From Balanoglossus misakiensis (Eukaryota > Animalia > Hemichordata), in NCBI GenBank assembly GCA_040954595.2, contig CM082596.2, positions 591,468-655,467 of the forward strand: a stretch of DNA of 64,000 bases, written 5' to 3'. The notes below the pieces were generated by a model. It saw only the letters and a program-made list of their open reading frames with translations, was not told the DNA's origin and made no database searches. A program made the position numbers and the translations under genes. This document shows, piece by piece, positions 13,864 through 62,900 of the stretch; within the stretch, counting starts at the first letter, position 1; each line of letters begins with the position of its first letter.

Positions 13864-21974
<8,111 letters not shown>

Positions 21975-22825: not shown

Positions 22826-23142
22826 GTGTATGAGTTAGAATCCATGAAAATGACATGAAAAAATGACAATAATTCACACAAAGTCAAGAATTGGCCATTT
22901 TTTGAAAGTGTATGAGTATAAATCCATGTATATGACATGAAAATGCTGAAAGTGACCAAAATTCACAGTCAAGAATTTGTCAGTATGGACTGTGTTCAAG
23001 TATGAATCCATGCTTATGATATTAAAATGCTGAAGGAGACAAAAATCACAAAGTCAAGAATCTGTCATTTTTGGTAGTGTATGAGTTAGAATCCCAGCAT
23101 ATGACAAGAAAAATGCTGAAGGTGACCAAAATTCACAAAGTT
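22826..23142. repeat. Degenerate minisatellite, about 83-bp unit x4
   Basis: gtgtatgagt..aatcc..atgac..aaaatgctgaa..aaaattcacaaagtcaagaat recurs at about 22826, 22908, 22992 and 23077. Confidence 0.85.
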
Positions 23143-24662
23143 ATAAGAACACATGATTGGTGTTAGCCAGCTCAATCGGCGGTCGAATACAACTGTACCT
23201 TGCATACAAGTGCTGCTGTGAGTGTGCACGTCTGTGATAGGCTAATACTGTACTATGTTTGTATGAGTTAAATAAACACCTATACAAATGATTGACATAT
23301 TAATCAGAATTGGCCGATTGTAGTATTTAGAGCAGCTGATCACTAACAGCCCAACAACGTTGAGATCACTGAAATGAGGACACAATTATTTGATATTACA
23401 GCAATTACGAGGAATACCAGATAGGATTAGCGAGATGAAAAAAATGAAAACAAGACAGTGTTGATCAGAAGCAATTCCATGCAACCATGGTAACAGTGAC
23501 GGGGAGTTCTAGTGCAGCTGAAGTAAGTTAACCTTGACGTCTTTGTAACATTTCTGCACAGGGCTGGAGTGAGAAATACGTGAGACAAAAATGAAGCCAC
23601 AGTCATTCTGTGCACCAACAGTGGTCAAGTATAACATGGATACTTGCCAATTGTGAGTATTACTAAATTTCAACTGTTTGGAGTGTTTACATTTCATGAT
23701 TTTGAGTCAGAATGGGAACAACCTGCAGTTGGAGCAAGATGACTGTACTCAACATACCGGTGCAGCGCAGTAATATTTTGTTAAAAATCATAGCGTACGT
23801 AACATACTACCTCATGAAGAGTTTGAATTAGTTTGAATGGTTTACTGCTGCAAATTAGTCCTTGTTGAAACTCGTGTTTCTATAGTTACACTGGTAACAC
23901 AGCACACTACACCCCAATATGAAAATATCAAATAGTTAATCATTACACTCGCAGTATGTATGACCCATACGGTACTCTGTCATCAGTTACTGATCGAGCG
24001 CTGACCGCCTTATATGGATAAACATCCAACATGACAACGTAGATATTTAGATAGAAGCAGTGCAAACTCGTGAACTCTGTTTTTCTGTTTAGTTCCGTCC
24101 TCTGATGAAAGAATTTAATGTTTAAAACTTTAACTAAAAGCAAAATACCTTAAGGCATTGAAGTGTGCCAATTGACATATTAATACAAGTTCCTGTGTTT
24201 ATTATTTTGTGAGCACCAACAAATTCTTCATGATAGATCTATTTTCGGGTTTGACTTCATGCAATTGATAGATACGGAAACAGATCAATCTTTTCAACTG
24301 TATGTACAAAGACAAGCTCAACTGACAATCAAGGATAAAAATATCTTCCTATGTAATAGGAAAATCTAGGTAGAATCACTGAGTGATAGCAACAAGCAAT
24401 TTAAAGCAAAAGACTCTTAAGAATTGACATTTTGGAGGTTGACACGAGAAACATTCAGTGACTTTTGTATGATGTGAGTACAACAGTTCTTTTATGAATC
24501 TGCTTTTCTCTTTTAGGGGCAGTTTTAAATCTAACTTTATTTTGATATGGATATATAGATTTGTTCAAATCAATCAAATTTACACAAGCTTAACGTCCAT
24601 ACTGAATCTCTTTCAGACATGATTGGCACTTTCCAAAGAATAATCTAAACTAAATTCTAGTG

Positions 24663-27017
24663 ATGTCGGACGACTATGAAGATGCTACGAGCGAGGAGAC
24701 ACTAAAGCCTCCTGATGCCCTTCTTGAAGGGATGAAACTCATGTCGCTTTCAGGAATATCCAAACTCAATCTGTCAGGAAATTCTCTGAAAGAACTTCCA
24801 AAGGACCTCTCGAACTGTGCTGAGAGACTAGAGGAACTTGACATAAGTAGCAACGATTTACAGCACCTCCCTGTGTCCGTCTGTCAACTAAAGAAACTGA
24901 GGGTTCTTGATGTAGGCAATGCTAACCACAATGGGAACAAGTTACAATCTCTTCCCTTGGGTATTCTTGAATTACAAAATCTTGAAAAGATTGTCCTCAA
25001 CCGAAATGCTTTCGTCAACTTTCCTGGAGAGCTCTGTCATTTGCAGAAGTTGGAGGAGATTCATATGGAAGGAAACAAAGTCAGTATCATCCCAACTGAA
25101 ATCAGGCAACTTCGGCGTTTAAGGAAGTTAAACATTGCAGACAACAAATTTCAACAGCTGCCAGACTCAATCTGTGACCTAGTCTACCTTAGGGAACTCG
25201 ATGTCAGTAGAAACAATCTTGAACGACTACCAAAAGATCTCCGGAAATTGAGGCGGATGCAGGTCTTAAAAATTGGGCATAACATGGGTTTGCGGTTTCC
25301 CTACGAGATCTTGGGGTTGACAAATCTTGAAGTTTTGCACATGAATGACAACAATATCAAAGACCTCCCAGCTGCAATAGGAGACAAACTCTCAAAGTTG
25401 AAGGAGCTTAAAATGGAGAAGAATCAAATATCTGAATTACCTGAGAGTATTTGTAAAATGGGGAATCTGATCAGTTTAAATATATCAAACAACGTGATAA
25501 CTTCTTTGCCACAAGATTTCGGTAATAATCTACCCAGTTTGGAAAATCTCGAAGTCAGCAACAATTACATATCTTATCTTCCAAACTCGCTTTGTAACCT
25601 TTCAAAGCTGTATAAATTTATAGCTGATCGTAACAATATCATCAATCTGCCCAAGGGATTCTTTGTTAAGCTAACCAACTTGACAATCCTATCCTTGAAA
25701 GATAATCCAATACGGTATCCGCCAGCAGAAATCCTCGATATGGATGTAGAGAGCATACGGGCATATGAGATGCAACATCCAGTATCCTCACCCCGTGATC
25801 GTCCCTCGACGTCTCATATCAGACCATCAAGACCATCAATTATTCCAACCCTTCCTGATTGGCTGAAGACTGGTGGCACAAGACATGCCAGACCAAAATC
25901 AGCAATGGCAAGACTGAGGTTGGAACGTGACGCTGAAAAAGAAACGTGGAAATCAAGCACCACAGAGACTTCAATTGAGGAAGGTGATCTAGATGAACAA
26001 GCAGCTGATGGTGATGGTGTAGAGGATTCTTCAGATACAGGAACCAAAGAAGATCCCTTAGCAACATCACCGACAATACCAGTATCTCCAATCTACAAAC
26101 ATGACCAAGTGTATCATATGGACAAGAAGCCCCACGGTCTGGCAGTTATTTTCAGTAATGAACACTTCACCTACAACATCAGACCCACTGGTAATGGCTT
26201 TGCTCAGAGACACGGAACTCAAATTGATATTGGTAAGTCCATTGGCTGTGATTAGATGACTTGCATTTGTTTCATAAGAATGCGCTCTTAAACATTTGCC
26301 CTACAATTAGCAAGATCATTCTTTTCTATATGAACGATTTCTTTTCTCTCTATCTCTTTTTAACCAGATCGACTAACAGAGGTGTTCAACTATCTCAACT
26401 ACAAAGTGCGTGTTCACAAGGATCTTACCTTGAATGAGATGAGGTTTCATCTTGACGACCTCAGGTGTGAGGATCACACAGACCATGATTCCTTCATCTG
26501 TTGCATTCTTTCACACGGAAGACAGGGAAGTATCATCACCAGTGATGGCCAGGAACTCATGATACACCACATAGAGAGAATGTTTTCTGCAGGACCCTGT
26601 CGATCTTTGCGAGGCAAACCAAAGATCTTCATCATTCAAGCTTGTCGGGGTAGATGGCGACAGGCAGGGTATGATATCGATGCAGGAGATGAATTCACAT
26701 CACTACCACCGTATTCAGAACTGCCCTGTCGACCCACGAGTGTTCCAGAAATGGCAGACTTCCTCTTTGGATACGCCACTGTTGAGAATCTTGTCTCCTA
26801 CCGCAGCGCCACAGAAGGGTCCATCTACATAGAGAAGCTGACATCTTGTTTGCATCGGTTAGCTAAATCAAATCACTTACTGGATATTCTAACAGAGGTC
26901 AACAAGGAAGTATCTGATGAAATCATTGGTGAAGCCTGTGGGGATTTAATGGTGGAGTCCAGACAAGTTCCAGCACCAGTCAGCACCTTGCGGGGAAAAG
27001 TTTACTTCAAACCTTGA
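24663..27017 (+). CDS. LRR-caspase fusion protein, 739 aa (exons 24663-26232, 26368-27017)
   Basis: 14 LxxLxLxxNxLxxLP repeats with an NPIRYPP cap, a basic/acidic linker, then a caspase domain: YHMDKKPHGLAVIFSN, RHGTQID, CILSHG, KPKIFIIQACRG, ADFLFGYATV, SYR, GSIYI, QVPAPVSTLRGKVYF. The phase-1 GT-AG intron joins in frame (IDIDRLTEVF). Confidence 0.93.
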
Positions 27018-27981
27018 TGCTCGCCATGGGTGAACCTTCTGTCATCCAGCGATACAATCTTACCAAACTGTCAATATTACTACAAACACTACACAGTCTG
27101 TGTTATATCTTTGAGGGTTACTGACTCTCAGTTCCGTCCAGTGCCAGAATGTCTCAGTTTCTACCTCATGTTGAGCACGTCAAAAGGGAACGTCTCAGAT
27201 CTCAGAACGTCTTGAGCTTACGTGACAATCTGAGACATTCCCTTATGCTCTACAGGGGTGGGATTTGAAATACTTGTAAATACCTGTACAGTTGTCCACA
27301 TATGACACTTTTACACAAATATGTTATGTATTGTAAGTCTCGTATTTAATCTTATTTAGGCTATGCCAGTTACACTTTACTTAAACCAATCACTAAACCT
27401 TTGGCTTATACATTTGTACATTAACAAAATCACCTTCTCAAGGCGAGAAATGTGCAAACTATTATGATTTAACATCAATTTACTTATCATTAACAGTTAT
27501 CATGAAAATGTTTTTCAAACAAGGACTGACCTTAAGAAATATATTCCTCCACCAATTATTCACTGGATTAACATATTTAACTGTAAAAAACCTTGCTATG
27601 AAATATTTCCCTGAATAACCATTTGATCGTCATGCTGCTCTGTATACCAACAAATTCTTTTTCTTGTATACCACCCATTGTTGCTTATGGAAACAATTCA
27701 TCAGGAAAGTGTCCTCTAATGAAAGACAAATGTGATGCTACGGGTTCATTTTCTCACAAAAATTTATAAAAAAAGTACTTAATTTCAATTTACACCAGTT
27801 GATAATGGAAAACAATTCAAAGTGCTGGCCACACCCCTAAATACTGGCTTCAAGCACAGTCCGACTTCCCCTTTTATTTAAAATGCAAAAAGAGTAGAAA
27901 TAATAAGAATTTGATGTAAATATAATGAGAAAAGTTCAGTCATCAGACAACCACAGAGTTCCTTGACCCTTTGACTCAAAT

Positions 27982-30900
27982 CTATGTTTCATCCGTTGAA
28001 TGGGACGATTGAAATACTGTATTCTGCATTGTACTTTGCATACCTGTGACAGTTCTAAGATACCTCTCATAATCCATTCCCATGTAAAGCTGTGGATGTT
28101 TGTCGATGGTGAAGAGTAAATTGACTGAGGCTTTATACTGGTCTGTGTTTGCACCTACGGACTGGTACAGCAACTGCAGACCGTTGCTACGAGCTGCTTC
28201 TAACACTGCAAAGGCATCCGCCTCTCCCATAGTGATGATTCTATCTGATATAGCAGTAGCGTTTTCATTTATCTCTCGCACTGTGAAAAGAGAAGAGAAC
28301 CATAAGATACAATACGATATGATACTACAATGTATTTATATATTGCCTGGTATCTCACAAAAATAGTTCTTAAGTTTAGACTTAAACACTTGAGAACATC
28401 ATGCTAAACGAATGTTTTTACACGTGTCAAATTACAGTATTAAATATACTTTTTACAAATCAAGTTGTTATGAAATATATTCTGAGCACCCATACCTTCA
28501 TTGAGTGTCTTTTCCTTCATGGCTTCAGTTTCTTTCAGAGTGAGTGCAGATTCCTGATTGAAAAGTTCTGTCTCAGCAGTAATGATCAGCATTTGTTGTG
28601 TCATGAATCTGTTCATAAGTGAATCATTCAACTCAATCCGTCCAAGCTGGAAATATCGCACATCAATGTGGTAACCTCTGTTGCAGTCAGTAGCATTGCT
28701 GCAGGGCACACAATCATCTAACTCAGCTGGGCATTCTGTTGGACAGCAGTTACCTGTGGTGACAACCAATTATTAGAACTCTACCCCAAAGTTGGTTAAC
28801 GGCCTAACCACATTTCACACAGTATGACCATAATCATCACTAACACAAGGCTGGTGGTTAGTTGTTCAAACGCTGCACGACTAACCAACTAGAAATGCCA
28901 TTTGTAATTTCATCTATGGTGATCCCAAATACCAAATCTTACCACCAAGTTTTTGTCTGACAGCTCTGTGAAGACCTTGTTCGGTTTTCTCTCTTTCTTG
29001 AATAAATTCATTGATTGAAAACTGACTGCCTGCATTCTTCACTTCTGCATAGGCGATTTTCTCAATCACTGGTTCAAAGTCAGCATCGTACTTTTCAAAG
29101 AGAAGGCCAAGTTCATCACCCCTGAGTGAAAGAAAACAATTCCAATGTTATCTTTTACCTGGGCATTGCAGGAATGGTTTTAAAATTCCAGAAATGATTG
29201 TTCAGAAATGTCCAAAACGTTTGTCAGTTCAGAGTAACAGGTTCCACTGTAATTCATTCTTAACATCGAACACAGATCACAAGGGAGAGTTTTTTTTTAG
29301 TATTCTTCAAACTTACTTTAGGAAATACTGAAATGTACAGTTCATCGTAAATTCCAGTTTTTCAGCTGAAAATACCCGCAAATCGTTCAGAGACACCATA
29401 TAAGCAATTCGATGAAACTCTCTGAATTTAAAATCCGGACCGATGCCGTGTCTTCCTGATGTGTACGTCTTGCCTTCATCCACCTCTCCCGTTGATTTCT
29501 GCTCCTTCAATCCAAACTGCAATTGAACCAAAACATTGTCATATAGGGACTCATCACAGCAATCTTGTGGCATTAACAGAATAATCTCAGACACTTTGCC
29601 AAAAAGAAATATCAAAACCATACACACACTTACCCTGTAGTATTCCAGATACTTGAATGTCATTGGTACAAGAATCAAAATCAATAAGAACCCAATGATG
29701 ATGACAAGCCCAAAGATGACAAAAATCACATTACAGATGTCAACTCTCTTTGCTTTCGGTTCCACATCTTCCAACTCCTCTGATGGTCTACTTGTTTTCT
29801 CAAATCTCACATCAGGAACATCAGAATATACAGCTTCTCTTCCATCATGATGATCTTCTAAATCTACATTCCTCAGAGTTACCAACGACGTCTCAGCATA
29901 TTCATTGCCATCTCCAAATGTAGTCACTGAACAAGAAGCTCCATCACCCGTATCTGGTGAGAATGTTTGCATTTCCAACGTCGGCACTGTCAGTTCCAGG
30001 AATGGTCGGTCCGATTTCTGGGATGAGCCAGTTGAGAGCGCATCCTCATATGCAGGTGGGGGTGGCACTTTCCAGTTTTCCACAATCTCTCCCTCCTCTG
30101 CAGATATGGGCCTTCTTCTCCAAGGATGCCTAGGGGTTTCTGACCCCTCAGATGACATGGATGGCTGAGTGTCCAGGGAGAACTCACTCCCAAGACCATC
30201 TGAATACTACAAGCAGAGAAATGAATCCTGTTTGTACTTTTGAACAGATGAAAGTCAGACTTCAAATACACAAGTGTTTGCATAACAGTACAACATGGAA
30301 AGTTATTGAATGCCAAAAAGTTACAGCAATGGGTGAATAATAACATGGTGTTATTTACCTCAGGCATATCATAGACATCATCATCATCATCATCATCATT
30401 TGGTCTTGGTGGTACGGGCGGTGGTGGTACTGTAGGCAAAACTGGTGGTTCTCTCTCTCTGTTACGATCCCCTACAAGATACAAACCCACATGAATGTGA
30501 ACATTGATCACCAATTTATATTCCCTCAGTGGTAGAAATACAAAGTGGTGAAGGGAGACAGGCAAGCAATGTTTTTGCTGTGATGAGCAGAGCCATTGAA
30601 GTCAATGCAATGAGTAGCAACAAAACAGAGATGGGGAACATTTGAAGGCCAAGATAAGATTTGGAAGATTGTTTCTGTTCATATTTGAAGTTTTAATTAA
30701 ATATATTAATATTAATTAAATTCACTTCATCAAAATACAACCACAGAACCTCCAGAACAAAATTTCAGCGTGCAGAAACCATGTACACCATGCATGCGTC
30801 CATCAAAACATTACACAAATCACCATATCTAACCCCTGTGTCCAAAAGAACTCCACCAAGTGACCACATTCCATTCCACAGACAGGGTACACGAAACAAT

Positions 30901-37000: not shown

Positions 37001-38451
37001 TTAGAGAGTCTAATTTGCTACCAAGTGAATGATTTGTGTGTGATGTCACATCCGGGTCTTTGACTCAGATTGTGTAGACAGCCGAGTCGCTTGAATTGCG
37101 TTCAAAGAGTCACTTCCTTCGTTTGGTGCTTGTCTGAGAAACTCGGGAAATAACACGCGCCATGCAGATTTGCCACAACAATGTCTAAACCTCAGAATAA
37201 TATCCATGCAGGCTTAAAACGTACAGGTTGTTCAACCTGTCTTTTTGGATCATGGTAATGATAATGGTGATATAACATCATCAACTACATTAGTGGCAAA
37301 TTTACGAGACAGGTGAATACGTTCATAATCTGTGTGTTTGGTGGTTAATATAGCATCCATTTTAGTCTCTTTGATTAAAAAAATTGATTGACACGCCAGA
37401 TGTTTATGAAAGTTTGCCATCACCTAATGCATGTACAACAAGTTGATTTACGACATGATAAACATGTATATAGCTTGTGTTGCTTTTGTGTGAAACAACT
37501 ACATTTTCGGTGAGTTAATTAAAAGGAAAACTGTAAATGCAATGTGGAAACTTGATGCTTTTCACAATCACCAAAAACCTTAATCACAGGAATAAATAAT
37601 TGTAACGTTCTAAGCGTCGGAGTTGCATACGTTTTTGTAAAAATGCTATTATGATCCCAGAGGATTTATTTTGATGATCTCTTGCGGAAATACTCGCAAG
37701 GTTAATAGAATCTGTCAGTTACTAGAAGATTCACGTCACAGAGATTTGAATATCGTTTGAAACTCCTTTGGCAGTATTGTTAACCATTTTAGAAATGATT
37801 GCTATGTGTAGCTACTGCGTTTTCTTGTTTGAATCCCTGAAACGTGATAAAATGACCAGTATGGAGCTTATCCGCACATTCTATAAGTTTAGATTCAATC
37901 AGTACTGTTATTATGGGAAACTGACATTGTAGAAAAATAAAATTAGCGAAACTAATACCATATGTTCGATACAGAGGACAAACGCCATTTATACTATGAT
38001 ACAAGGTGATGCCTGTATCCAGCCTGTGTCACATCTCAGCTCTGGACACTAAAGTGATCCCACCATGATTGGCCATTAAAGACAGAACAAGACAAGATGT
38101 ACTTACCCTCATTGAAACCAAGTGTCCAAACATAACGTCATTATCGCAAAGAGTAAAGAAACTCGTTCCATACTGGTACACCAGTTCACCTACCGAGGTT
38201 TCGCTCAACTCACAGTCATTGCTGAACCTCTTGAAGTTGTAGGAGGAACATCTATCAGACAGGAGGCACATGGAAGTGCATTGTGTAAGGCTGAACACTT
38301 GGCTGGATGAAAACACATGGCCACTTAGTCGGTTGTTTCTCACTCTGTAATAACCCATCTGGACAGGATCCTCTGAATTCAAATCCCGGCAGAAACTCTC
38401 GGCCATTTCCAGCAGGACGGCAATGTTTACCACTAACGCCAGTTTCTTCAT
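34062..38451 (-). CDS. Secreted PAN - linker - Thr-rich stalk - PAN/apple protein, 334 aa
   Basis: Exons 38451-38107, 36773-36710, 36228-36055, 35388-35191 and 34285-34062 splice in phases 0,1,1,1. Signal-like N-terminus; PAN pattern QCTSMCLLSDRCSSYNF..CELS; apple pattern DCCKLCQETTDCSAWTY..CYVK...ISG. Confidence 0.8.
34465..34657. mobile_element. 193-bp MITE with perfect 25-bp TIRs and TA target duplication
   Basis: CTGTAAAACACTTTATTTTCGCGAG ... CTCGCGAAAATAAAGTGTTTTACAG, with TA on both sides; a TA duplication suggests the Tc1/mariner superfamily. Confidence 0.9.
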
Positions 38452-39222
38452 TATTATTTCGTTGTTACCTCAGATACTGTTAGTAATTTCCACATTTAAC
38501 GGTTGAACCATTCTTGAAGAAGCTTTAAACTGAACGATTTTCCCTCAATACAATTATATTACATAAGTTATTAAATTGCAAATTTTCAGCCAGACTGAAA
38601 AAAGTCATTAAATTGTAAATTTACACGCCAGACTTTTTCGAATGAGAAAATCATTCATTTAAACACACAGATTGTCTACTAATGGCTTATACCATGCCGT
38701 TACCTTCTCGAAGCAAATAATCCTCTCCAAAACATTTACTGGTGCATCTTTAGCTCCAATATCGACATAGTTTTTCACTCGCGGCTCCGATGTTATGACT
38801 GAAACAGAAAGCCTTGTTGTTAATATATTAGATGTGGATACAATTTGCTGTCGTCACGCTATTACTACACGTTATAGGCGATCAAAGGTCACCTTTTCTG
38901 TATTCTGATGAAATGTTCTCAGCCAATGGCTTCGAAGGTAATCCAATTGGATATACTGCAGTTATTATATTTAAAGAGTTTGATGCAGATCTGCATAATT
39001 ACATAATTAAAGAAGCGATTAACGTCAATCTAATTTTACTTAAACGCCACAACTAATTCCATAGAGACACTTAGTCACGAAAGGGGTGACTACACTCAGA
39101 GCTGTCAATATGTAAACAGTTATTTCCCTTAGAATATATGCACATCAATCACGTAGAGGTGGAACTCCTGTGTTATGTTGCTTTACTGTGACCCTCCCCA
39201 TAGCCCTCTTCGCTTTACAAGT

Positions 39223-42200: not shown

Positions 42201-43873
42201 TTGTCTTCTGGAAATTGCACTGGTAATATTGTGGTATTCTTTGAAAAAAAATGATACAATACATTGCTTAAAACTGACAGTGAAATTAATCAGTTTGAGC
42301 AAGCAATAAATCTGATGATGCATGAAACTGCCAAAAATCACTAGTTCGTTATAATTAACTTTCGTTCTGCTGATATGACGCGCATAAAATTGTGTCTCCT
42401 AGTCATGGTGTTACTTTTCTTCTATCCAATATTTCACAGACATTAAAGTAGAAAGATTAACATGCTCACAACATAATGGACAATTGTAGCTGTAGGGAGA
42501 GTCGACGAACTAGATCTAGATGCAAACATGATGTAAACAAACAAAACAAGACAAGACAGGGCAATGTTAGCAGACTAATATTTATGTAATTATGAGCAGC
42601 ACACACGTATATGCTCCTCAATATAACCTCCTACCAGAAGTATCAATATTTTCATAAAAGAGGCATTGATATAGAGATAGTCAAGATCAAATTGAGGTGA
42701 AAGGTGTCAAAGACGTGATGCAAATGAAAAAGACGAGTGATTGCAAGACTCAAAGCTCAGTACACCATGCTTTGCGATAACACTTGCCAGATAGAAGTAG
42801 AAAATAGATTAAAATCACGATGGAAATAGACAACTTAAGTGGTTTGGAAAGGAAGTATCGCTGTTTGGTTCCAATTTATGTCGACAAATAAATTTACCTT
42901 GGTTTGTTTTTAACGTCATACTTATAAAGTACAGTTTACGTGTGACAATGATAAGATGGCCCAGTCAAAGCATCAGACCAAATCTCGCGAGATTAACCGT
43001 GATTAAACTTAATGAGCTTTTTCCATTAAAATGCTTGTTTTCCTTACTCCAATAAATGCCTGTCCGTTTGTTCGTTTGCAGATATCACAGAAAAGATCAT
43101 GCACGTTTTCTAAACATGGTCATACATCAATGTCTCTCTTCAGACGTGTTTGATTTTCACAATTGGACATAAGAATATTGTAAATAGTTATTTCCCATAT
43201 GTTGCGGTTAAATTTTTACTTGCCCTAAGGCAAGCATGAAATTCCTACCATCCGATGTTTATTCTACGGTTTGTTTTTAATTTCAACGACAGTGCAGAGG
43301 TCATCTCTGGTTTGAGGCTGAATCTGAAATAAGACTTAGCTACAGGTTATACTCGGATTGCTTGTATCGCCGGAAACAAAATTTAGGTATTGGACCAATT
43401 CAAGGTTAAATCATCAAAAAACAAGGATTTTCTTAAACATGACATAGTCTTCATGTCATGAGTCCTTCGTCAATGGTTAATTCTCTTTAAACAAAAGACG
43501 TCAACGTATTTCAGAGACGGAAGATGAATGCATACATCACCTGATGTAAGTTGAAGTACACATTTGCTTCAAAATACCAAACGCCTACTTCAGAGAGGTA
43601 ATCCTGTGGGCTCATCTCTTTTGTCGATGTGCTTAATTCACACCTGCTTTCTCGTCTCCAGTAGTTGAAAGACTGGCATTCTGGATATCTGTTGCATTCC
43701 TCTCCACATTCCACGGCACTGAAAGTTTGCAGGACCCTGGAAACATGATTGGAAAGGTGTTTGTCTTTGTAGATTGGTAACATGGCATTGTTGGACAGGG
43801 TCAGTGCAGCACGGAAATGGAACACAAATCCGAACAGGATAAGAAGCTCTTCTAGTGCTCGCAGCCGAGCCAT
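39223..43873 (-). CDS. Secreted PAN-EGF-expansin-like protein, copy 1, 359 aa
   Basis: Exons 43873-43541 (signal plus PAN), 40455-40332 (EGF), 40137-39998, 39828-39628 (CGACLHLIGPTGSAVVRVLSDCPGC, double-psi barrel) and 39504-39223 (CBM63-like, ending VQFSKC); phases 0,1,0,0 are compatible. Confidence 0.8.
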
Positions 43874-46800
43874 TGTGCTTTGAATTGCGTCACTGCACTC
43901 TTCAATTGCAAGCTATGATCACATATGCCGCCCACAGCAACTTCCAACAGGCGTTCAGATATTATGAGTGTTTTGCCCGGAAATCACTGCCTTTCTGATT
44001 AGTTGAGAGTTACTAAACTGCGCAGGTCACACTCACTCATTCATAACGTTTCTGTCTTTCCAGCCACTCAAAGTATGCTCCGTTTATCCTGTTTCCATCG
44101 TCATTCTTTTCTTATTTAACATCATCAATTTTAAGCAAGTAGCCTACTCATTTATGTCAATCTCAAGAATTAAGAGCAATACGGGTATTTACTATCCTCT
44201 TTTTAGATACACAAAGAATTGTTGTTCCCATAAACAAAAGCAAAACCTTGATGAGCAGAGTTGTGAGCAAAGCGCCCTCTAATGATCTTCCCCACTTTTT
44301 CAGTCGCGGTAGAAGTGCCTCACTATTGGTTTATAATGGTTCACGATTTCAAAGTCCAAAAAAGTTAACTACATCAGTCAATGCGGGAATAAAGCGCCTC
44401 ATACAAGCAACTTTGTTACTGTAGTCATGGTTTACAACAATCACAGTGACGTTGACAATAAAATGGTGTATACTTACAAGCAGTCTATGATCGAGATACA
44501 CCTATACACTATAGCGTGTGAAGTCTGTACGCTGCAAATCTTGACTTGTGTTCAGGTGTTTGAGTTTTATAGGTTGAGATTACTGAGCTTAGGCACTGGG
44601 ACCCGAGTTTCTTAACTTCTCGAATATACCAATCATTAAGGATGTTGTGTTCATGCAAGGCAAAAAGATTTATTACTTATTTCAAGAATTGTAAAAGCTG
44701 CCATAAAGAAACCATTGCAGTAACCGTCAATCAATCATGCTTTGAATAGTGTACAGGCTGACCTGAAGGATTGGATAGCCATGGCACATTTTGCTTTTGT
44801 TGTATTCATTGGAATCTGTTCTTCACCTTTGCTTCAAGGGCATGTTCAGGAGACCGACCACAACACGTGGAGGGGGGTGGGTGGGTAGGGGTAGGTTGCT
44901 TCAATCCATGTTGGATTGTTACTATCTGGAAAACCTTGACTTGTTCTTTATATCTGCAAATATAAACATCTTTCAGTTATCAATCAAACAGAAAATAAGT
45001 GCTTGTTGTGAGAACTCAAATATTAAATTCGTCATGAGAGAAGTCATGATCTCAATCACGCTCCCGCGTTGTAAGACCGAATTTGGGTCGACGTTACACC
45101 GTTTGTTTACTTGGGGTATAAATTGCAATTTTCTCCTGGATTTAATTTTGATTAAATAGGAGATTGGTGTTATTGGAAAATTTTGAGCTGGTTTGGAAAC
45201 TGTCAAGAAATAAGCGATTGATGGCTTCTAGTTGCATTTCCCGAAATAACACCACTCACGTGACTGATATATTTTACAAAATTGCTGTCTATCGATTAAT
45301 TAGATTCTGGAAACTGGTATTTACAAAAAACAGATATAAAAGGAATGCCTTCCCCTGATTTGAGAGACCTTTTTTTTCACCCACAACTGCTTTTAATCAA
45401 GTGAAAGCATGTTGATGCATGAGATTGTACGATCTACGGAATTGACGATGGAATTGGTGATTACTGCAGGCGTTGAGACGTCATTATTGTTCCTAACATT
45501 TCTCATCAATCACCAATATACTAGAACACTGCACAGTGTGGTTCAGTACTTCGCCCTCAAGATGAATTTAATTCCTTAACCATGATCGAGATGAAGATGT
45601 ATATACACCACCTAAAACAGACAATATACGGAAATAGGCGTAGCGATTCAAAATTCCAAGAATACTCGAATAGAATTTATGGATGAGATATAATACAACT
45701 GCCTTCTTGCTTTAACTGTCAAGGTAAAGCTGATCCTGTTAAACCTATCAAAATATGAAATAATTTCATCTACACTAATCAGGTTATAGATTGAAAGTTA
45801 TTCATGAGCAATTGTTATGTATTATACTGTGCATGATGTTCATTTGAAACATATTTTGAATGACAGATTTCATTTTCAAGACTTGTCGTACCTGCGTTTG
45901 CCACTAAAATCTGCTTTGTTTCGAATAAAAAATTGAGTTTTTATCAAATTCTGTCTAAGCATCTAATCATTACATTATCGGATCCTGTAGGAGTAATTTT
46001 CTCTCTATTGAAAGAATTGTGCATTCTCTGTACATGTGAATTATCTTGTCACTATTCAATGTCATGACAACTGCATCATCTAATTAAAATGTACATCTTG
46101 ACACATTGTTAAACATTCATTTGAATTCATCTTAATTGTAATGGGGGAAATCTCAATGGTGTGAATTCGATTGCTTGGAGTGAAAACCAAACCAGTAATT
46201 TTGGTAATTATTGGTGTTAGAAGACATTTTCATAGAAACAACTGCACTTCTTTTAATTCACAACACGCATGAAGTGATCATGGAATAATTAAACAGTCTG
46301 ACAAATGGCATGTACTTGAACCAATCGGATTAGGGGTCACTTCAAAGTAAAAAGAGTTCAACTGTCAATCATTCCTAAAGCTTAAAATCAATGTTGCGCG
46401 CAGACTGCTGTTATAGCACCCTGGGTCTCTGGGAATTAATTTGCATAAGCAATTACCAAGAACCATGGCAAGATCACGTTTTCTTTCCTTAATTCGTCGA
46501 TAAATGGAGCTTAATTCATGTCTTGTTATACCCACGGTTTTGTCTAATGGAGAACTATATATATGAAACAAAACGCGTAATTCAACCTGACAAAAAAATG
46601 TACTACGGAAACATAAGCTCACTTCCCTTACTTTATCAATTGATTGAAAGACGGCACACAGTCAGAATAATAGAATTCAAATCAGGAAATATCAATTAAG
46701 CAGTGCATCTTTGATAATATGCTTGGCGCCGCGCGAGAGTGGACTTTTAATTTTCTACGCCTGCAAGTCTCTAAAAAATCCATTGAAAGAAATTAAGTTT

Positions 46801-58000: not shown

Positions 58001-59952
58001 GAAAGCTAACACAATGTGTTTTGCAACTTCAATTGGCTACATAAGTTAAATTTGGGTGCATGGAGATCCCTTTTTATCTCCAAGGGCACGTGTAAGAGCT
58101 GGCTAGACTTCCACAGTGTTTTACTCTGAAATATAACATCAGATATCATGTGGAACAAGCCTGAAGGGTGTGTGATGGTCAGGAAAAACAGGGGAAGACA
58201 GTTCTAATAAAATATTTTATCTGCACCGTCTGTTGATTCTGAGTACGGAAGCCATCTATGAATACCAATGAGACACCAGCCTTCACGTAAAGTCCGTCAA
58301 TCTTTATCAAAAGACATCAGAGATCTGTGAGATGCAGACATACTGGCTTTGACGAAGGAAGTTCGTCTGACGCCGCTTCTCAAATTCTGTTCTGTAGCGT
58401 AAATCGACGTAAAATGACGACAATTCGTAATTTCCACGTGGCATAAATACGTAAACAGAGCCCGTGCTCTGTTATCGACTAATTTCCACTTTCAGTACAA
58501 TAAAATTGTTTAAAAACAAACGCCAAGAGAGCGTACAGGAGAAAGACTTAAGAAAGTCACAAAGAATCACGATGAACATTTGCAGAAGGAAATTGGCAAT
58601 AACTAGGTTGGATTATGAGAATGTATCAAAGCGGGAAACAATCGCCCTTTGGTGAGCAAATCTCTTTCATTACAATATCCACAGCAACTTGATATGTTTC
58701 TTGCCATGTACAGCGCGTAATGATACGACAGTGGACATTATGAGCAGAATCTCTTTTAGAACTGGAAGATGCAGACTGGGAATTGAAACGAAAGTGAGAG
58801 TACATTTTTCGATTGAAATGAACCACCGTGACGCTGGCAAATGGTTTTCCTTCAAAGCATCAATTTCACAGATCCCTGAAGTCCATCAATACGTGTCGTC
58901 TTTTCCTGATTTCTTGTTTAACGAGACAGAAACAGAGGAAGTCGCTGTGAAACCATCGCTAAGGTATTGTGTTTCTAAACTCGTGGGCCAGGCCACACGG
59001 TGCCTGTGATTTTCCCTTGTGGTACAATTTCAAATTTCACGTCTTACTGGCAAAGACTATTATATACCATATTGCTCTAACAACATCACAGGGAGCAGGG
59101 TGTTCTACAAGTTTGTAAAATATTACATGTTTCTCTTCTCCATCTCGCAAACAGTCATACCTACAAAGCCATGATATTTATCGTCGCACCATGCTTGCAA
59201 CCTTTTTACTATGTTTCATGACAGGAAAATCTCTTCGATGGAGAAGTATCAAGATTTTTGAAGAAATCGAAGTCTTTTTTAATGTCAACCTTTGTCGAAT
59301 TTTATTTCTTTCCACTTAGACGTTTCAGGGAATGAATTTGATTTCGGAATTTTATTGCTCACAAAAACGGTGATAAATTCCGTATTACTGGTTTATTCGA
59401 AAACACGATGCGGCTCGTGGCACACAAGAGCTAGCTGGAATGTATATATCAAAGTAACTGATGGTGTGTCTGATCGGGAAATGTAACAGAAACATGTCTC
59501 TTTCTCACGAAAATTCATCATCAGTGTTTGAAGCATCAAAATTACTCACAGAATGAAATCTGCCTGAAGTTCAAACACTGATAGATGCTTTTGACTTTCT
59601 CTCCCGTCCAACGTACCTGACATGGTTGAAGAACATCCCTGTAGGAATCAGCCGAAATATACCACGCTCCGTACGATATTACGTAATCCGCTGGATGCGC
59701 CTCTCGTGTTGATGTGTTCAACTGGCATCGGTTCTCTCTTCTCCAGTAATTAAAAGACTGACAATGCGAAATCTTGTCACATTCTCTGCTGCAATCCACG
59801 CTACTGAATGTGTCGAGTTCAACAAAGACGTGATTGGCCAGATACCGGTCTCTGCTCGTCACAAGTGTTGAGTTTTCGAACAGAACACCTCCATCGCTGT
59901 GGTAGAACGTTACGAAGGTGCAGTAAAACAAAGACGAGAACAATTTCTGCAT
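49052..59952 (-). CDS. Secreted PAN-EGF-expansin-like protein, copy 2, 356 aa
   Basis: Exons 59952-59617, 50369-50246, 50074-49944, 49790-49587 and 49327-49052, with the same phases and the same 124-nt EGF exon size as copy 1. Joining the PAN exon across a 9.2-kb intron is inferred from phase and paralogy (shared CQSFNYWRRExRCxL). Confidence 0.75.
55598..55629. repeat. (AATC)n microsatellite
   Basis: Read directly from the sequence. Confidence 0.85.
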
Positions 59953-62900
59953 CTTCTGTGTCAGAAAGCGAAATCAAAAGAGTTCTGAGCTTGATAGTTA
60001 ATCAGTGATTAGAAAAGCGCTGTTCTTCGGAGTGGAGATAAAATGGTAGCGTACAGTGGTCAATACGGACTCCCTTATTACTACTTCAGTGAGCAAGATG
60101 ATTGAGGTCTGTATCAAAATCTCGGTACCGTTGAGAATGCGCACGCATCACATGTTCTGGTCTCAGTCGGATATTTTATGCTTCTCACGTTTTCTGTCGA
60201 CGGAGCATGTGGCTTGCCAGGCGATCAGTGCAAGCGCTTTTGAAGATCCGCCAGCGAGAGTTTATGAACCGTGTGATCAAGTTAATTAAATAGATTCGTG
60301 GCAACGACAGCTTGTTTGAGCGTAAAGATACATCGCCACGGACTCATCTTTCTGAAGTATCTAGATTCATGCTCATTTATTTCTACAAACCTCATTTATA
60401 AGTTTATCAGGATATTTGTTTGTGTTCAACTTTTTAGAAACTCTGACAGACACACATAGGAAAAATACCAAAGAGAGCCAAAAGTTACAAACAACCTCCA
60501 AGATTTGAAAGAGCACATTCTTCAGGGGCAAACAGTGCATTGTATGACCATGGATTAAGTGCCATAGGCGCAAATGTGGCAGATAATTCTGCAACTAGCG
60601 ATCATCAGATGTGAGCGCCACCAAGACAAACAACCACGTCAGTGTCACTGACAACATTTAGTGACAAATTGTCACAGTTTCACCCCTGCTGTTATGTCTT
60701 TCAGAACGTCATTAGAAGAAAATAAGAGGTGACATTTAAACTACCATTTATCATTATTTTATAATCCGGGTTGAAGTCCCCGTCCTTCATTAAATGCCAC
60801 CCACGTCGAGGAAGATGGTGATCACAAAAACCTGAACACGTATTCACACACGATTATGGGTGAGCATTTAGGGTAATGATGTTTAAGCCTCCTTACGATT
60901 ATCGTGCACAATTCTACACTTAGTCTTGTGAAACAGTTTTACGAGTTGTGCGTCAGAATCTGCCCAGTGGATAATTTGCCAGAAGGGAAAACTTCTTTCA
61001 TTATTCAGTAAATGTCACAACTTTAAATTGACGCGGTCTTTGTGAATTGGTATAGATATATCTTCGTGTAGGGGCGCCGGTATGTGAAAGTGTAAAGCAT
61101 AAAATCTTCCTTTTTAGGGAATCATTAGTTCAATATTACATTGACTGCAACTAATATGAGACCAGTCGCAGCAGAAGTGGATAAAAGTTGGCTAATAATA
61201 TAAAAGCCGTGTTCTCTTACTCGCATGTCTATGAGAAAGCAGAGGTCTGACTATCAGACAATGAAAGATGCGGATGTACAATTTCGAGTTCCGGAAGCGC
61301 ACAAATGTGAATGGAAGTTGCTCTGAATACCTGCGCATATGTATGACCTTTTTACGTCACGTGATTGGCGGTGCAGAGGCCAGCAAAGAAGCACGTTTGC
61401 GCACAGAGAGGAATGAAATACTTTAAAAAACGGTCTTCATATGCTGACGAATGATTGAAACATATGTTAGTGTGATGAAGCGACGTTAAACCAGGTGCAA
61501 CCCCCTGACATCTGTTGTAAGTCCATGACTAACACCAGGTGCAACGCTGCCATTATGCATTACATCAATAATATGCAAATGAATGTCATCGCCAAAAAGA
61601 GCTGCCATTCAATATTCAAAGCTTCACCCACAGAGTGATTACCAGGACACAATATTGAATAATATAACATGCGTGTTCCGCAGAAGATAATATAACGTAC
61701 TCACCAACACCTCGTCTTGAATTCTGTCCAAAATAACGGTTACAAAAGTGAAAAGGCACCTCCACAATTGGCAATTGTCCTGATGATGTCCATTGAAACT
61801 GTTGTGTCGCTCGGTCAACCTTTTGATAAACCACAAGCTGGGTCAATTTTTCTGCCATGTCATGATGATATACTACAACAATTAGTTTCAGAACAGTGTT
61901 CAGTCCAAATAAACGCTATTTCGCAAGAATGTCATGATGGCCACGAAGGAAAAACGCACTTCCATTTCTTTCTTTCTCCCCACTCATGTCCCGGTCACAG
62001 CCTCAAGCAAAATGTCCACATGCAAAACTCCACTCACCAAATTACAATTTTGTTGACCAGCCAGGTGTTCTTATTGTTATGTAAATGTCTTACCCTGGCT
62101 CTACACTGTGACAATCTGAGAGGTTTCCAGCAATTGGATAAAAACAGTAGTAAGAGAAGTTGCGAGCGTTAGGGGCGCTTTTGGAAAAAGGTGACTACTG
62201 GACCAAGTCTTGTCATCTGGGAGCGCTCTTTACACTGATATGTATGTATAATGATTGATTAAAGCAAGTTTATAAAAGCAGCACACTTGTACGGTATTAT
62301 ACATTTTCTACAAATTCCAATCTCTGTACATTTCCCATGACAGATGTAGCAAGATTGTGCTTTATTAGCTGATTTATTTCTTTGGTACCATTTATGTTTG
62401 GATGCTACGTAAAATAAATAAACATTATGTAGTTATTATTAAATAACTATAGAAAAATAATACATAACTATTTTACTCATAAGCAGATACTATTGACACT
62501 GCGAGTTCGGTAAATGTGGCATGATAAACGGTTTAACGCGTACACATGTTGAACACTTGTGAAGTGTTGACACATCGTTACAGATTTTGGCGACAAAACT
62601 AACAGTTGCATCTGAGTGCATTATTGTCAGAGGACCGTTGCCTGGTGATTGTATGTTCAACGACCATTGACGTCTCGTAAATTCTTACAGGGTACTATAA
62701 ACACAACGTGTACAGTGCCTGTCTGGGTCAACTCAAATTTGCAATGGTAGGCCAAACACACCAATATGTGTATACGTATAGAGGCTACCAACTCATACAA
62801 AGACAAATGCTTACATTACACAACATAGAATAATTTCTAAATGAATGAAACTAAGATCAGCACTAGAATCAGTGCCGAGTGCGCACTCGCAGTCTTGCTC

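Follow-up and report, generated by a model that had tools for sequence, protein, structure and literature searches.

Gene structure

The window, the whole stretch of 64,000 nucleotides from Balanoglossus misakiensis that was analysed, is animal DNA with a GC content of 35–42%. It was found to carry a two-exon gene, running from an ATG at 24663 to a stop codon at 27017, in which leucine-rich repeats (LRRs) and a caspase are encoded as a single product of 739 aa with one terminal stop. The parts of this LRR-caspase gene, all on the forward strand, are as follows.

24497..24662, +, possible 5' UTR portion of exon 1, with a putative acceptor at 24516 and a stop codon in frame at 24651-24653
24663..26232, +, coding exon 1: acidic N-terminus, 14 LRRs, C-cap, linker, first caspase strand and S1-Arg loop
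24756..25766, +, LRR solenoid, aa 32-368: 14 repeats of the SHOC2/LRRD1/Roco type with an NPxxxPP cap; fold taken from the model of the ortholog
25767..26114, +, linker, about aa 369-484: many S, T, P, D, E and R residues, predicted to be disordered
26115..26232, +, first part of the caspase large subunit, including the codon of S1 Arg516 at 26208-26210, from sequence motifs and alignment
26233..26367, +, phase-1 GT-AG intron of 135 nt, as predicted from the sequence
26368..27017, +, coding exon 2: small subunit and stop codon, from Pfam and motifs
26514-26516, 26643-26645 and 26802-26804, +, exon 2 codons of His573, Cys616 and Arg669, respectively
26679-26681, +, exon 2 codon of Asp628, the predicted self-cleavage site

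There are two open frames, 24654-26255 and 26364-27017. Eighteen GT-AG joins between them hold the frame open, and the one chosen combines the sole GTAAGT donor (TTG/GTAAGT at 26232/26233) with the best acceptor (26367/26368, preceded by a tract with 85% pyrimidine) and retains the RHGT motif. This splice had been proposed in a sequence-only reading of the locus, and it is supported by an ortholog from Ptychodera flava, which aligns across the junction. Read without splicing, the frame ends at 26255. The exon 1 frame comprises 533 codons, the longest in 1000 shuffles having 172, and the LRRs, the linker, the first caspase strand and the S1-Arg loop all lie inside one exon of 1570 nt, so that the fusion is independent of splicing and cannot be the product of two neighbours wrongly joined.

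The in-frame stop is a TAA four codons 5' of the ATG. An upstream exon would be permitted by an in-frame acceptor at 24660, which is weak (45% pyrimidine). The possibility that such an exon adds a death fold, which the sequence-only reading had taken into account, is unlikely, given the in-frame stop, the lack of any profile match and the P. flava ortholog, which starts at the same Met. Inspection by eye disclosed an out-of-frame uORF of 9 codons (24619-24648) directly before the main ATG, which could lower translation of the main frame. No AATAAA signal was found within about 1.4 kb downstream of the gene, and two simple patterns for NF-kB-like and ISRE-like motifs, a weak test, had no match upstream.

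Other features recognised in the window are listed below.

174-647, −, myosin motor-domain exon (Pfam, E 6e-7)
19045-21941, −, kinase gene with its start at 21941, arranged head to head with the LRR-caspase gene (Pfam Pkinase, E 1.9e-4)
22877-23141, tandem repeat of 85 bp in about three copies with 72% match, between the kinase and caspase starts
27936-30600, −, convergent gene on the downstream side, with a TM-like stretch and weak similarity to SPFH/Band 7 (E 3.4e-4)
38032-38469, 43514-43912 and 59545-59973, −, three PAN/Apple-domain exons

The kinase, encoded by the nearest gene upstream, is ULK4-like by its sequence; its start codon and that of the LRR-caspase are 2.7 kb apart, so a common promoter region is possible. 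The last exon of the convergent gene may overlap the 3' UTR space of the caspase gene, and the PAN/Apple exons are likely to form a small cluster of secreted proteins. Searching with tblastn, using the window protein and nine relatives as queries, disclosed no further caspase or LRR locus there.

Domains and catalytic residues

The predicted protein consists of 14 LRRs, a linker of ~115 aa and a caspase domain. The 14 LRR strands start between aa 32 and 340, and 12 of them match the strict motif, those at aa 79 and 199 being irregular. Pfam assigned exon 1 to LRR_8 (E 3.3e-39) and exon 2 to Peptidase_C14 (E 2e-45; 155.7 bits against a cut-off of 21.4). The caspase motifs RHGT, SHG, QACRG and SYR are found at positions 516, 572, 614 and 667, and the catalytic set, Arg516, His573, Cys616 (in QACRG) and Arg669, includes the dyad and both S1 arginines. 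Pfam, the motifs and the ortholog thus bear out the earlier description of a single chain with 14 LRRs and intact His, Cys and S1 Arg positions.

The absence of a transmembrane segment, also noted in that description, is confirmed, as the highest hydropathy over 19 residues is only 1.03; the N-terminus is acidic. The same holds for its statement that the LRRs stand in place of a CARD or DED prodomain, with neither a death fold nor an NTPase, which was examined with Pfam and with home-built profiles made from fetched DED, CARD and Death proteins (positive controls, E 1e-25 to 1e-58). These profiles gave no match in the LRR-caspase protein or in nine relatives, and their best E value over 2883 six-frame pieces of the window was 0.56. 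The Pfam scan of the LRR-caspase, in which the LRRs are N-terminal, contained no NACHT or NB-ARC NTPase, and a PIDD1-like layout (LRR, ZU5/UPA and Death) is likewise absent by Pfam and the death-fold profiles.

The linker holds 10 Asp residues. When the caspase domain is aligned with caspase-8, Asp628 (YDID/A; YEVD/A in the ortholog) falls on the first Asp between the subunits. Both the window protein and its ortholog have Ile as the small-subunit residue that follows GS, while Trp, Phe or Tyr occupies this position in 19 of 22 aligned rows. In other caspases the residue at this position belongs to the lining of the S4 pocket, and the replacement of Trp by Ile suggests that the specificity may differ from that of caspase-8.

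The ortholog in Ptychodera flava

Comparison of exon 2 with longer proteins gave 59 matches, only one of which carries LRRs, namely XP_070569985.1 (P0001) from P. flava, a protein of 747 aa that RefSeq models as one chain under the name 'protein scribble homolog'. This name was rejected, as the Pfam list of the protein is without PDZ. The two proteins align end to end, from the same start Met and with the splice junction covered. Identity amounts to 219/335 residues (65%) in the LRRs and 176/259 (68%) in the caspase domain, and to 38/115 (33%) in the linker (aa 366-480). Positions on the concave face of the LRRs are identical in 36 of 56 cases against 65 of 131 elsewhere (p 0.079), a trend that is missing in a trio of paralogs described below (p 0.67–1.0). 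The concave face is therefore at least as conserved as the other exposed positions, which suggests a conserved partner more than an arms race.

As modelled by AlphaFold2 (mean pLDDT 78.7, pTM 0.57), the ortholog has an LRR solenoid to about aa 369, then the linker, with pLDDT below 50 across most of residues 372–484, and then a caspase fold. The model matched caspase chains with a TM of 0.91 by target, and the top six rows of the Foldseek search are titled as complexes of caspase-8- or caspase-3-specific peptides. For the LRRs, the closest solved structures in the PDB search are those of LRRD1 and SHOC2, and the ESM Atlas structure matches of P0001 are solely LRR, Roco and LRRD1 clusters; the same Atlas gave no usable feature match for P0001 or P0202. 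The NPxxxPP C-cap occurs in six of ten family proteins, and the same cap-type LRR module was seen by eye on amphioxus LRR-Death-kinase and LRR-Roc proteins. When the LRR region was used as the query, a caspase domain was present in the ortholog only, one among the 120 matches listed.

The LRR-caspase family of acorn worms

Among the matches listed, nine LRR-caspase genes were found in three acorn-worm species that represent three families (Ptychoderidae, Spengelidae and Harrimaniidae).

Ptychodera flava, five genes: XP_070569985, XP_070569996/7, XP_070569699, XP_070533318 and XP_070545591
Glandiceps talaboti, two genes: XP_077999233 and XP_077985432
Saccoglossus kowalevskii, two genes: XP_006816015 and XP_002732925

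A HMMER search with the caspase domain of the ortholog contributed 150 proteins among the matches listed, and the LRR region of the window protein matched six of the 205 proteins scanned in the exon 2 and HMMER sets, all six from hemichordates. An alignment search added two members and one partial model, the full-length form of which was obtained by a cluster look-up. Pfam confirmed both LRRs and caspase in all nine genes. By sequence, the window gene has several relatives in acorn worms and forms a multi-gene family with them, which is an addition to what had been read from the window itself.

The catalytic His and Cys are kept in all family members, the P. flava model P0327 having an intron-like insert ahead of the Cys. 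The trio P0202, P0327 and P0432 has the unusual active-site pentapeptide QACQN, not QACxG, in all three species. The LRR arrays vary across the family from 5 to 12 strict repeats. Of the five P. flava genes, three are recorded on a contig of 44,037,996 bases, as are two LRR-less near-paralogs (P0204 and P0318) and the canonical DED-DED caspase-8, which suggests local duplication. In the newer annotation of S. kowalevskii one paralog is split into P0344 and P0431, and P0344 departs from the full-length sequence at the codon where the unspliced frame of the window gene does so. We read this break as an intron probably common to both genes, the annotations disagreeing on that paralog.

No LRR-caspase from Branchiostoma was found in the searches run, which were incomplete. 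As the alignment search recovered only one of its own six query members among the 120 matches listed, the absence of amphioxus and echinoderm matches is weak evidence.

Other caspase-8-like proteins with unusual partners were encountered (P0233, P0371, P0320, P0194, P0021 and P0181). These comprise an ankyrin-caspase from Macrostomum lignano, a kinase-caspase from Amphiura filiformis, an Ig-caspase, an Antedon protein with a long helical N-terminus that is TPR-like by eye, a GTPase-caspase from Batillaria, and an RRM-like double caspase, in the order of the handles. Swapping of prodomains on the caspase-8-like clade may be common, and some of these examples are perhaps model errors.

Relationship to caspase-8

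The sequence search of the PDB ranked caspase-8 (E 1.5e-40) above caspase-3 (E 2.2e-34). In a maximum likelihood tree of 40 caspase-domain rows, from which 21 non-family rows out of 61 were left out, all 12 family rows (ten LRR-caspases and two LRR-less paralogs) fell with DED caspases in a clade of 36 rows (97/84), and caspase-9, caspase-2 and a further CARD caspase lay outside it. A first tree had left out 37 of 207 rows without exactly one QACx motif. The tree rows come from searches seeded with the LRR-caspase family and include no named caspase-3, -6 or -7, a gap in executioner caspases that is covered by the ranking in the PDB searches. The initiator-like character ascribed to the protease by the sequence-only reading is in keeping with this placement in the caspase-8/10 clade. 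As judged from sequence, the caspase domain is derived from caspase-8, and the protein is not a canonical caspase-8, tandem DED being absent.

Within the clade, the window protein pairs with P0001 (100/99), and these two join P0325 and P0204 (93/87 together), with a long branch leading to the subgroup of the window protein and its ortholog. A second group is the trio P0202/P0327/P0432, one per species from three families (100/100); a third consists of P0248, P0328 and P0318 (98/93), and a fourth of P0280 and P0300 (90/63). The family as one clade was held by none of 200 bootstrap trees, and the AU test did not reject that arrangement (p 0.465 and 0.366). Across groups, the LRRs resemble each other no more than they resemble those of unrelated LRR proteins, P0300 with the trio being the exception. 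The family may have arisen by one old fusion followed by divergence, or by several fusions.

Proposed activation and alternative explanations

With moderate confidence, and by analogy with caspase-8, the product is likely to be a cytosolic initiator caspase that is switched on when its LRRs are clustered by a multivalent partner. The zymogen would be a monomer, as in caspase-8. Binding of the LRRs to the partner would bring two caspase-8-like domains together and dimerise them, and the dimer would then cleave itself at YDID628/A and cut downstream caspases or signalling proteins, with no need for an adaptor of the FADD or ASC type. Activation by clustering is described for caspase-8 fused to oligomerising FKBP or CRY2-PHR (PMC10754905). 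A conserved LRR on a disordered, poorly conserved linker fits a tethered binding module that clusters a protease, and induced proximity is further supported by caspase-8 as the best match, both by sequence and by the fold of the ortholog model. A rapidly evolving pathogen protein is the less likely partner; a conserved molecule is favoured, be it an invariant microbial pattern or a protein of the host, and an immune or stress role is plausible. An antiviral death role is disfavoured by S. kowalevskii, which has two family genes and in which poly(I:C) gave no enrichment of apoptosis terms in the results seen of that study (PMC11251625). Other points against this explanation are that the concave-face trend falls short of significance and does not appear in the paralog trio, that Ile replaces the aromatic residue after GS, that the weak upstream test for NF-kB-like and ISRE-like motifs was negative, and that LRRs of this type are frequent in non-immune scaffolds (SHOC2, LRRD1).

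Autoinhibition by the LRR is established for NLRs, and by this analogy, or by that of a CARD8-like tripwire, the LRRs could fold back on the caspase and keep it inhibited, the block being lifted by a ligand or when a protease of pathogen or host origin cleaves the linker. We regard this as unlikely. The linker, which is long, fast-changing and predicted to be disordered, does resemble protease baits, and its 10 Asp residues would suit such a role, but no Asp site is clearly common to the window protein and its ortholog. The LRR arrays differ widely in repeat number and, except within the ortholog sets, are no nearer to one another than to unrelated LRR proteins, so that no common inhibitory surface is evident. 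Moreover, caspase-8-type domains are described in the same report as inactive monomers even without an inhibitor (PMC10754905), so release alone is not expected to activate them. It is similarly doubtful that the LRRs are a targeting or substrate-recruiting module with a non-immune job (development, gametes or SHOC2/Ras-type signalling), the caspase being activated by another caspase or by concentration. Such a job would agree with LRRD1 and SHOC2 as the nearest solved LRRs, with an LRR region about as conserved as the catalytic domain, with the clean one-per-species trio and with the lack of an apoptotic response to poly(I:C) in what was seen for S. kowalevskii (PMC11251625); it is at odds with the five P. 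flava genes, their varied repeats and the LRR-less P0204 and P0318, in which we infer duplication and turnover of an immune type, and with the same cap-type module on the amphioxus proteins.

The long branch and the change from Trp to Ile could mark a weak or inactive caspase, a cFLIP-like modulator that pairs with canonical caspase-8, while a retained intron, ending the frame at 26255, would give a mostly unspliced LRR-only decoy, and the newer annotation of the S. kowalevskii paralog breaks there into P0344 and P0431. Either outcome is highly improbable, as the window protein and its ortholog both retain His, Cys, the Gln and the two Arg, the caspase domains of the two are 68% identical and RefSeq has the ortholog as one chain. 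The gene model was built on DNA sequence, and yet an artefact or a pseudogene can be practically dismissed in view of the single open exon that holds the LRRs and the caspase start, the whole-length ortholog and the nine relatives in three species. Clustering of the LRRs remains the preferred explanation.

Comparison with known systems

To our knowledge, animal pathways couple sensing to initiator caspases by means of death-fold adaptors. In PIDD1-RAIDD-caspase-2 and in the NLR inflammasomes an LRR protein likewise acts upstream of an initiator caspase; there, LRR and caspase reside on separate chains connected through death folds, and NLRs carry a NACHT ATPase, whereas the LRR-caspase is one chain with neither a death fold nor a NACHT ATPase. 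The cytosolic LRR modules of SHOC2, LRRD1, MFHAS1 and Roco proteins share the repeat type and the NPxxxPP C-cap, and in them the LRRs are followed by a Death domain, by Roc-COR or by nothing, while a caspase follows here. Caspase-8 and -10 (C14A, PF00656) have the nearest catalytic domain, the same placement of the inter-subunit Asp and a long prodomain with a flexible linker. The LRR-caspase differs from them in having 14 LRRs instead of DED, QACRG instead of QACQG, and Ile instead of Trp after GS, and acorn worms also hold a separate canonical DED-DED caspase-8 (P0213, P0345).

We tentatively extend this comparison to the whole family, which might represent old, diversified, adaptor-free immune sensors of one chain, with cytosolic LRR arrays grafted onto caspase-8, possibly several times, and each member detecting a different intracellular danger signal. 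If so, it would be a natural minimal inflammasome or DISC in which proteolysis is started directly, with no death folds and no ATPase, and it would also show the freedom with which caspase-8 prodomains are swapped in nature. Its importance would be lesser if the LRR were only a targeting module.

Kozlovski et al. (2024) included two S. kowalevskii members of the family, XP_006816014.1 and XP_002732925.1, under the names 'casp10b' and 'casp10c' (PMC11251625); in the main text of that paper the words 'LRR' and 'leucine' are absent and the clade is called DED-bearing. LRR is not mentioned in PMC13736523, and the one supplement of PMC10210618 seen contains no caspase and no family accession. Within the literature searched, which covered sources outside subscription journals, no paper on a hemichordate LRR-caspase family was found, and the layout is named only in PMC2575513. 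There, Zhang et al. (2008) reported 'LRRs-caspase' hybrids in amphioxus with QACXG intact and proposed a direct link from recognition to apoptosis, so the possibility, left open in the sequence-only reading, that the layout is undescribed is not supported. Both the layout and the direct-link hypothesis date from those models, and the acorn-worm gene is not a new category. What is added here is the sequence evidence for a single-exon fusion, for caspase-8 ancestry and for a family, apparently unreported, that spans three acorn-worm families. The 2008 models are predictions without cDNA support, LRRs-caspase not being among the 16 rows of the cDNA-verified table (PMC2575513), whereas the acorn-worm fusion lies in a single exon and is conserved between species. 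These two properties, together with the ortholog trio, make the idea of a direct connection testable on named, short and soluble proteins. As far as the description in that paper allows a comparison, the amphioxus LRRs-caspase has the same pair of domains, with the LRRs joined directly to a QACXG caspase (PMC2575513).
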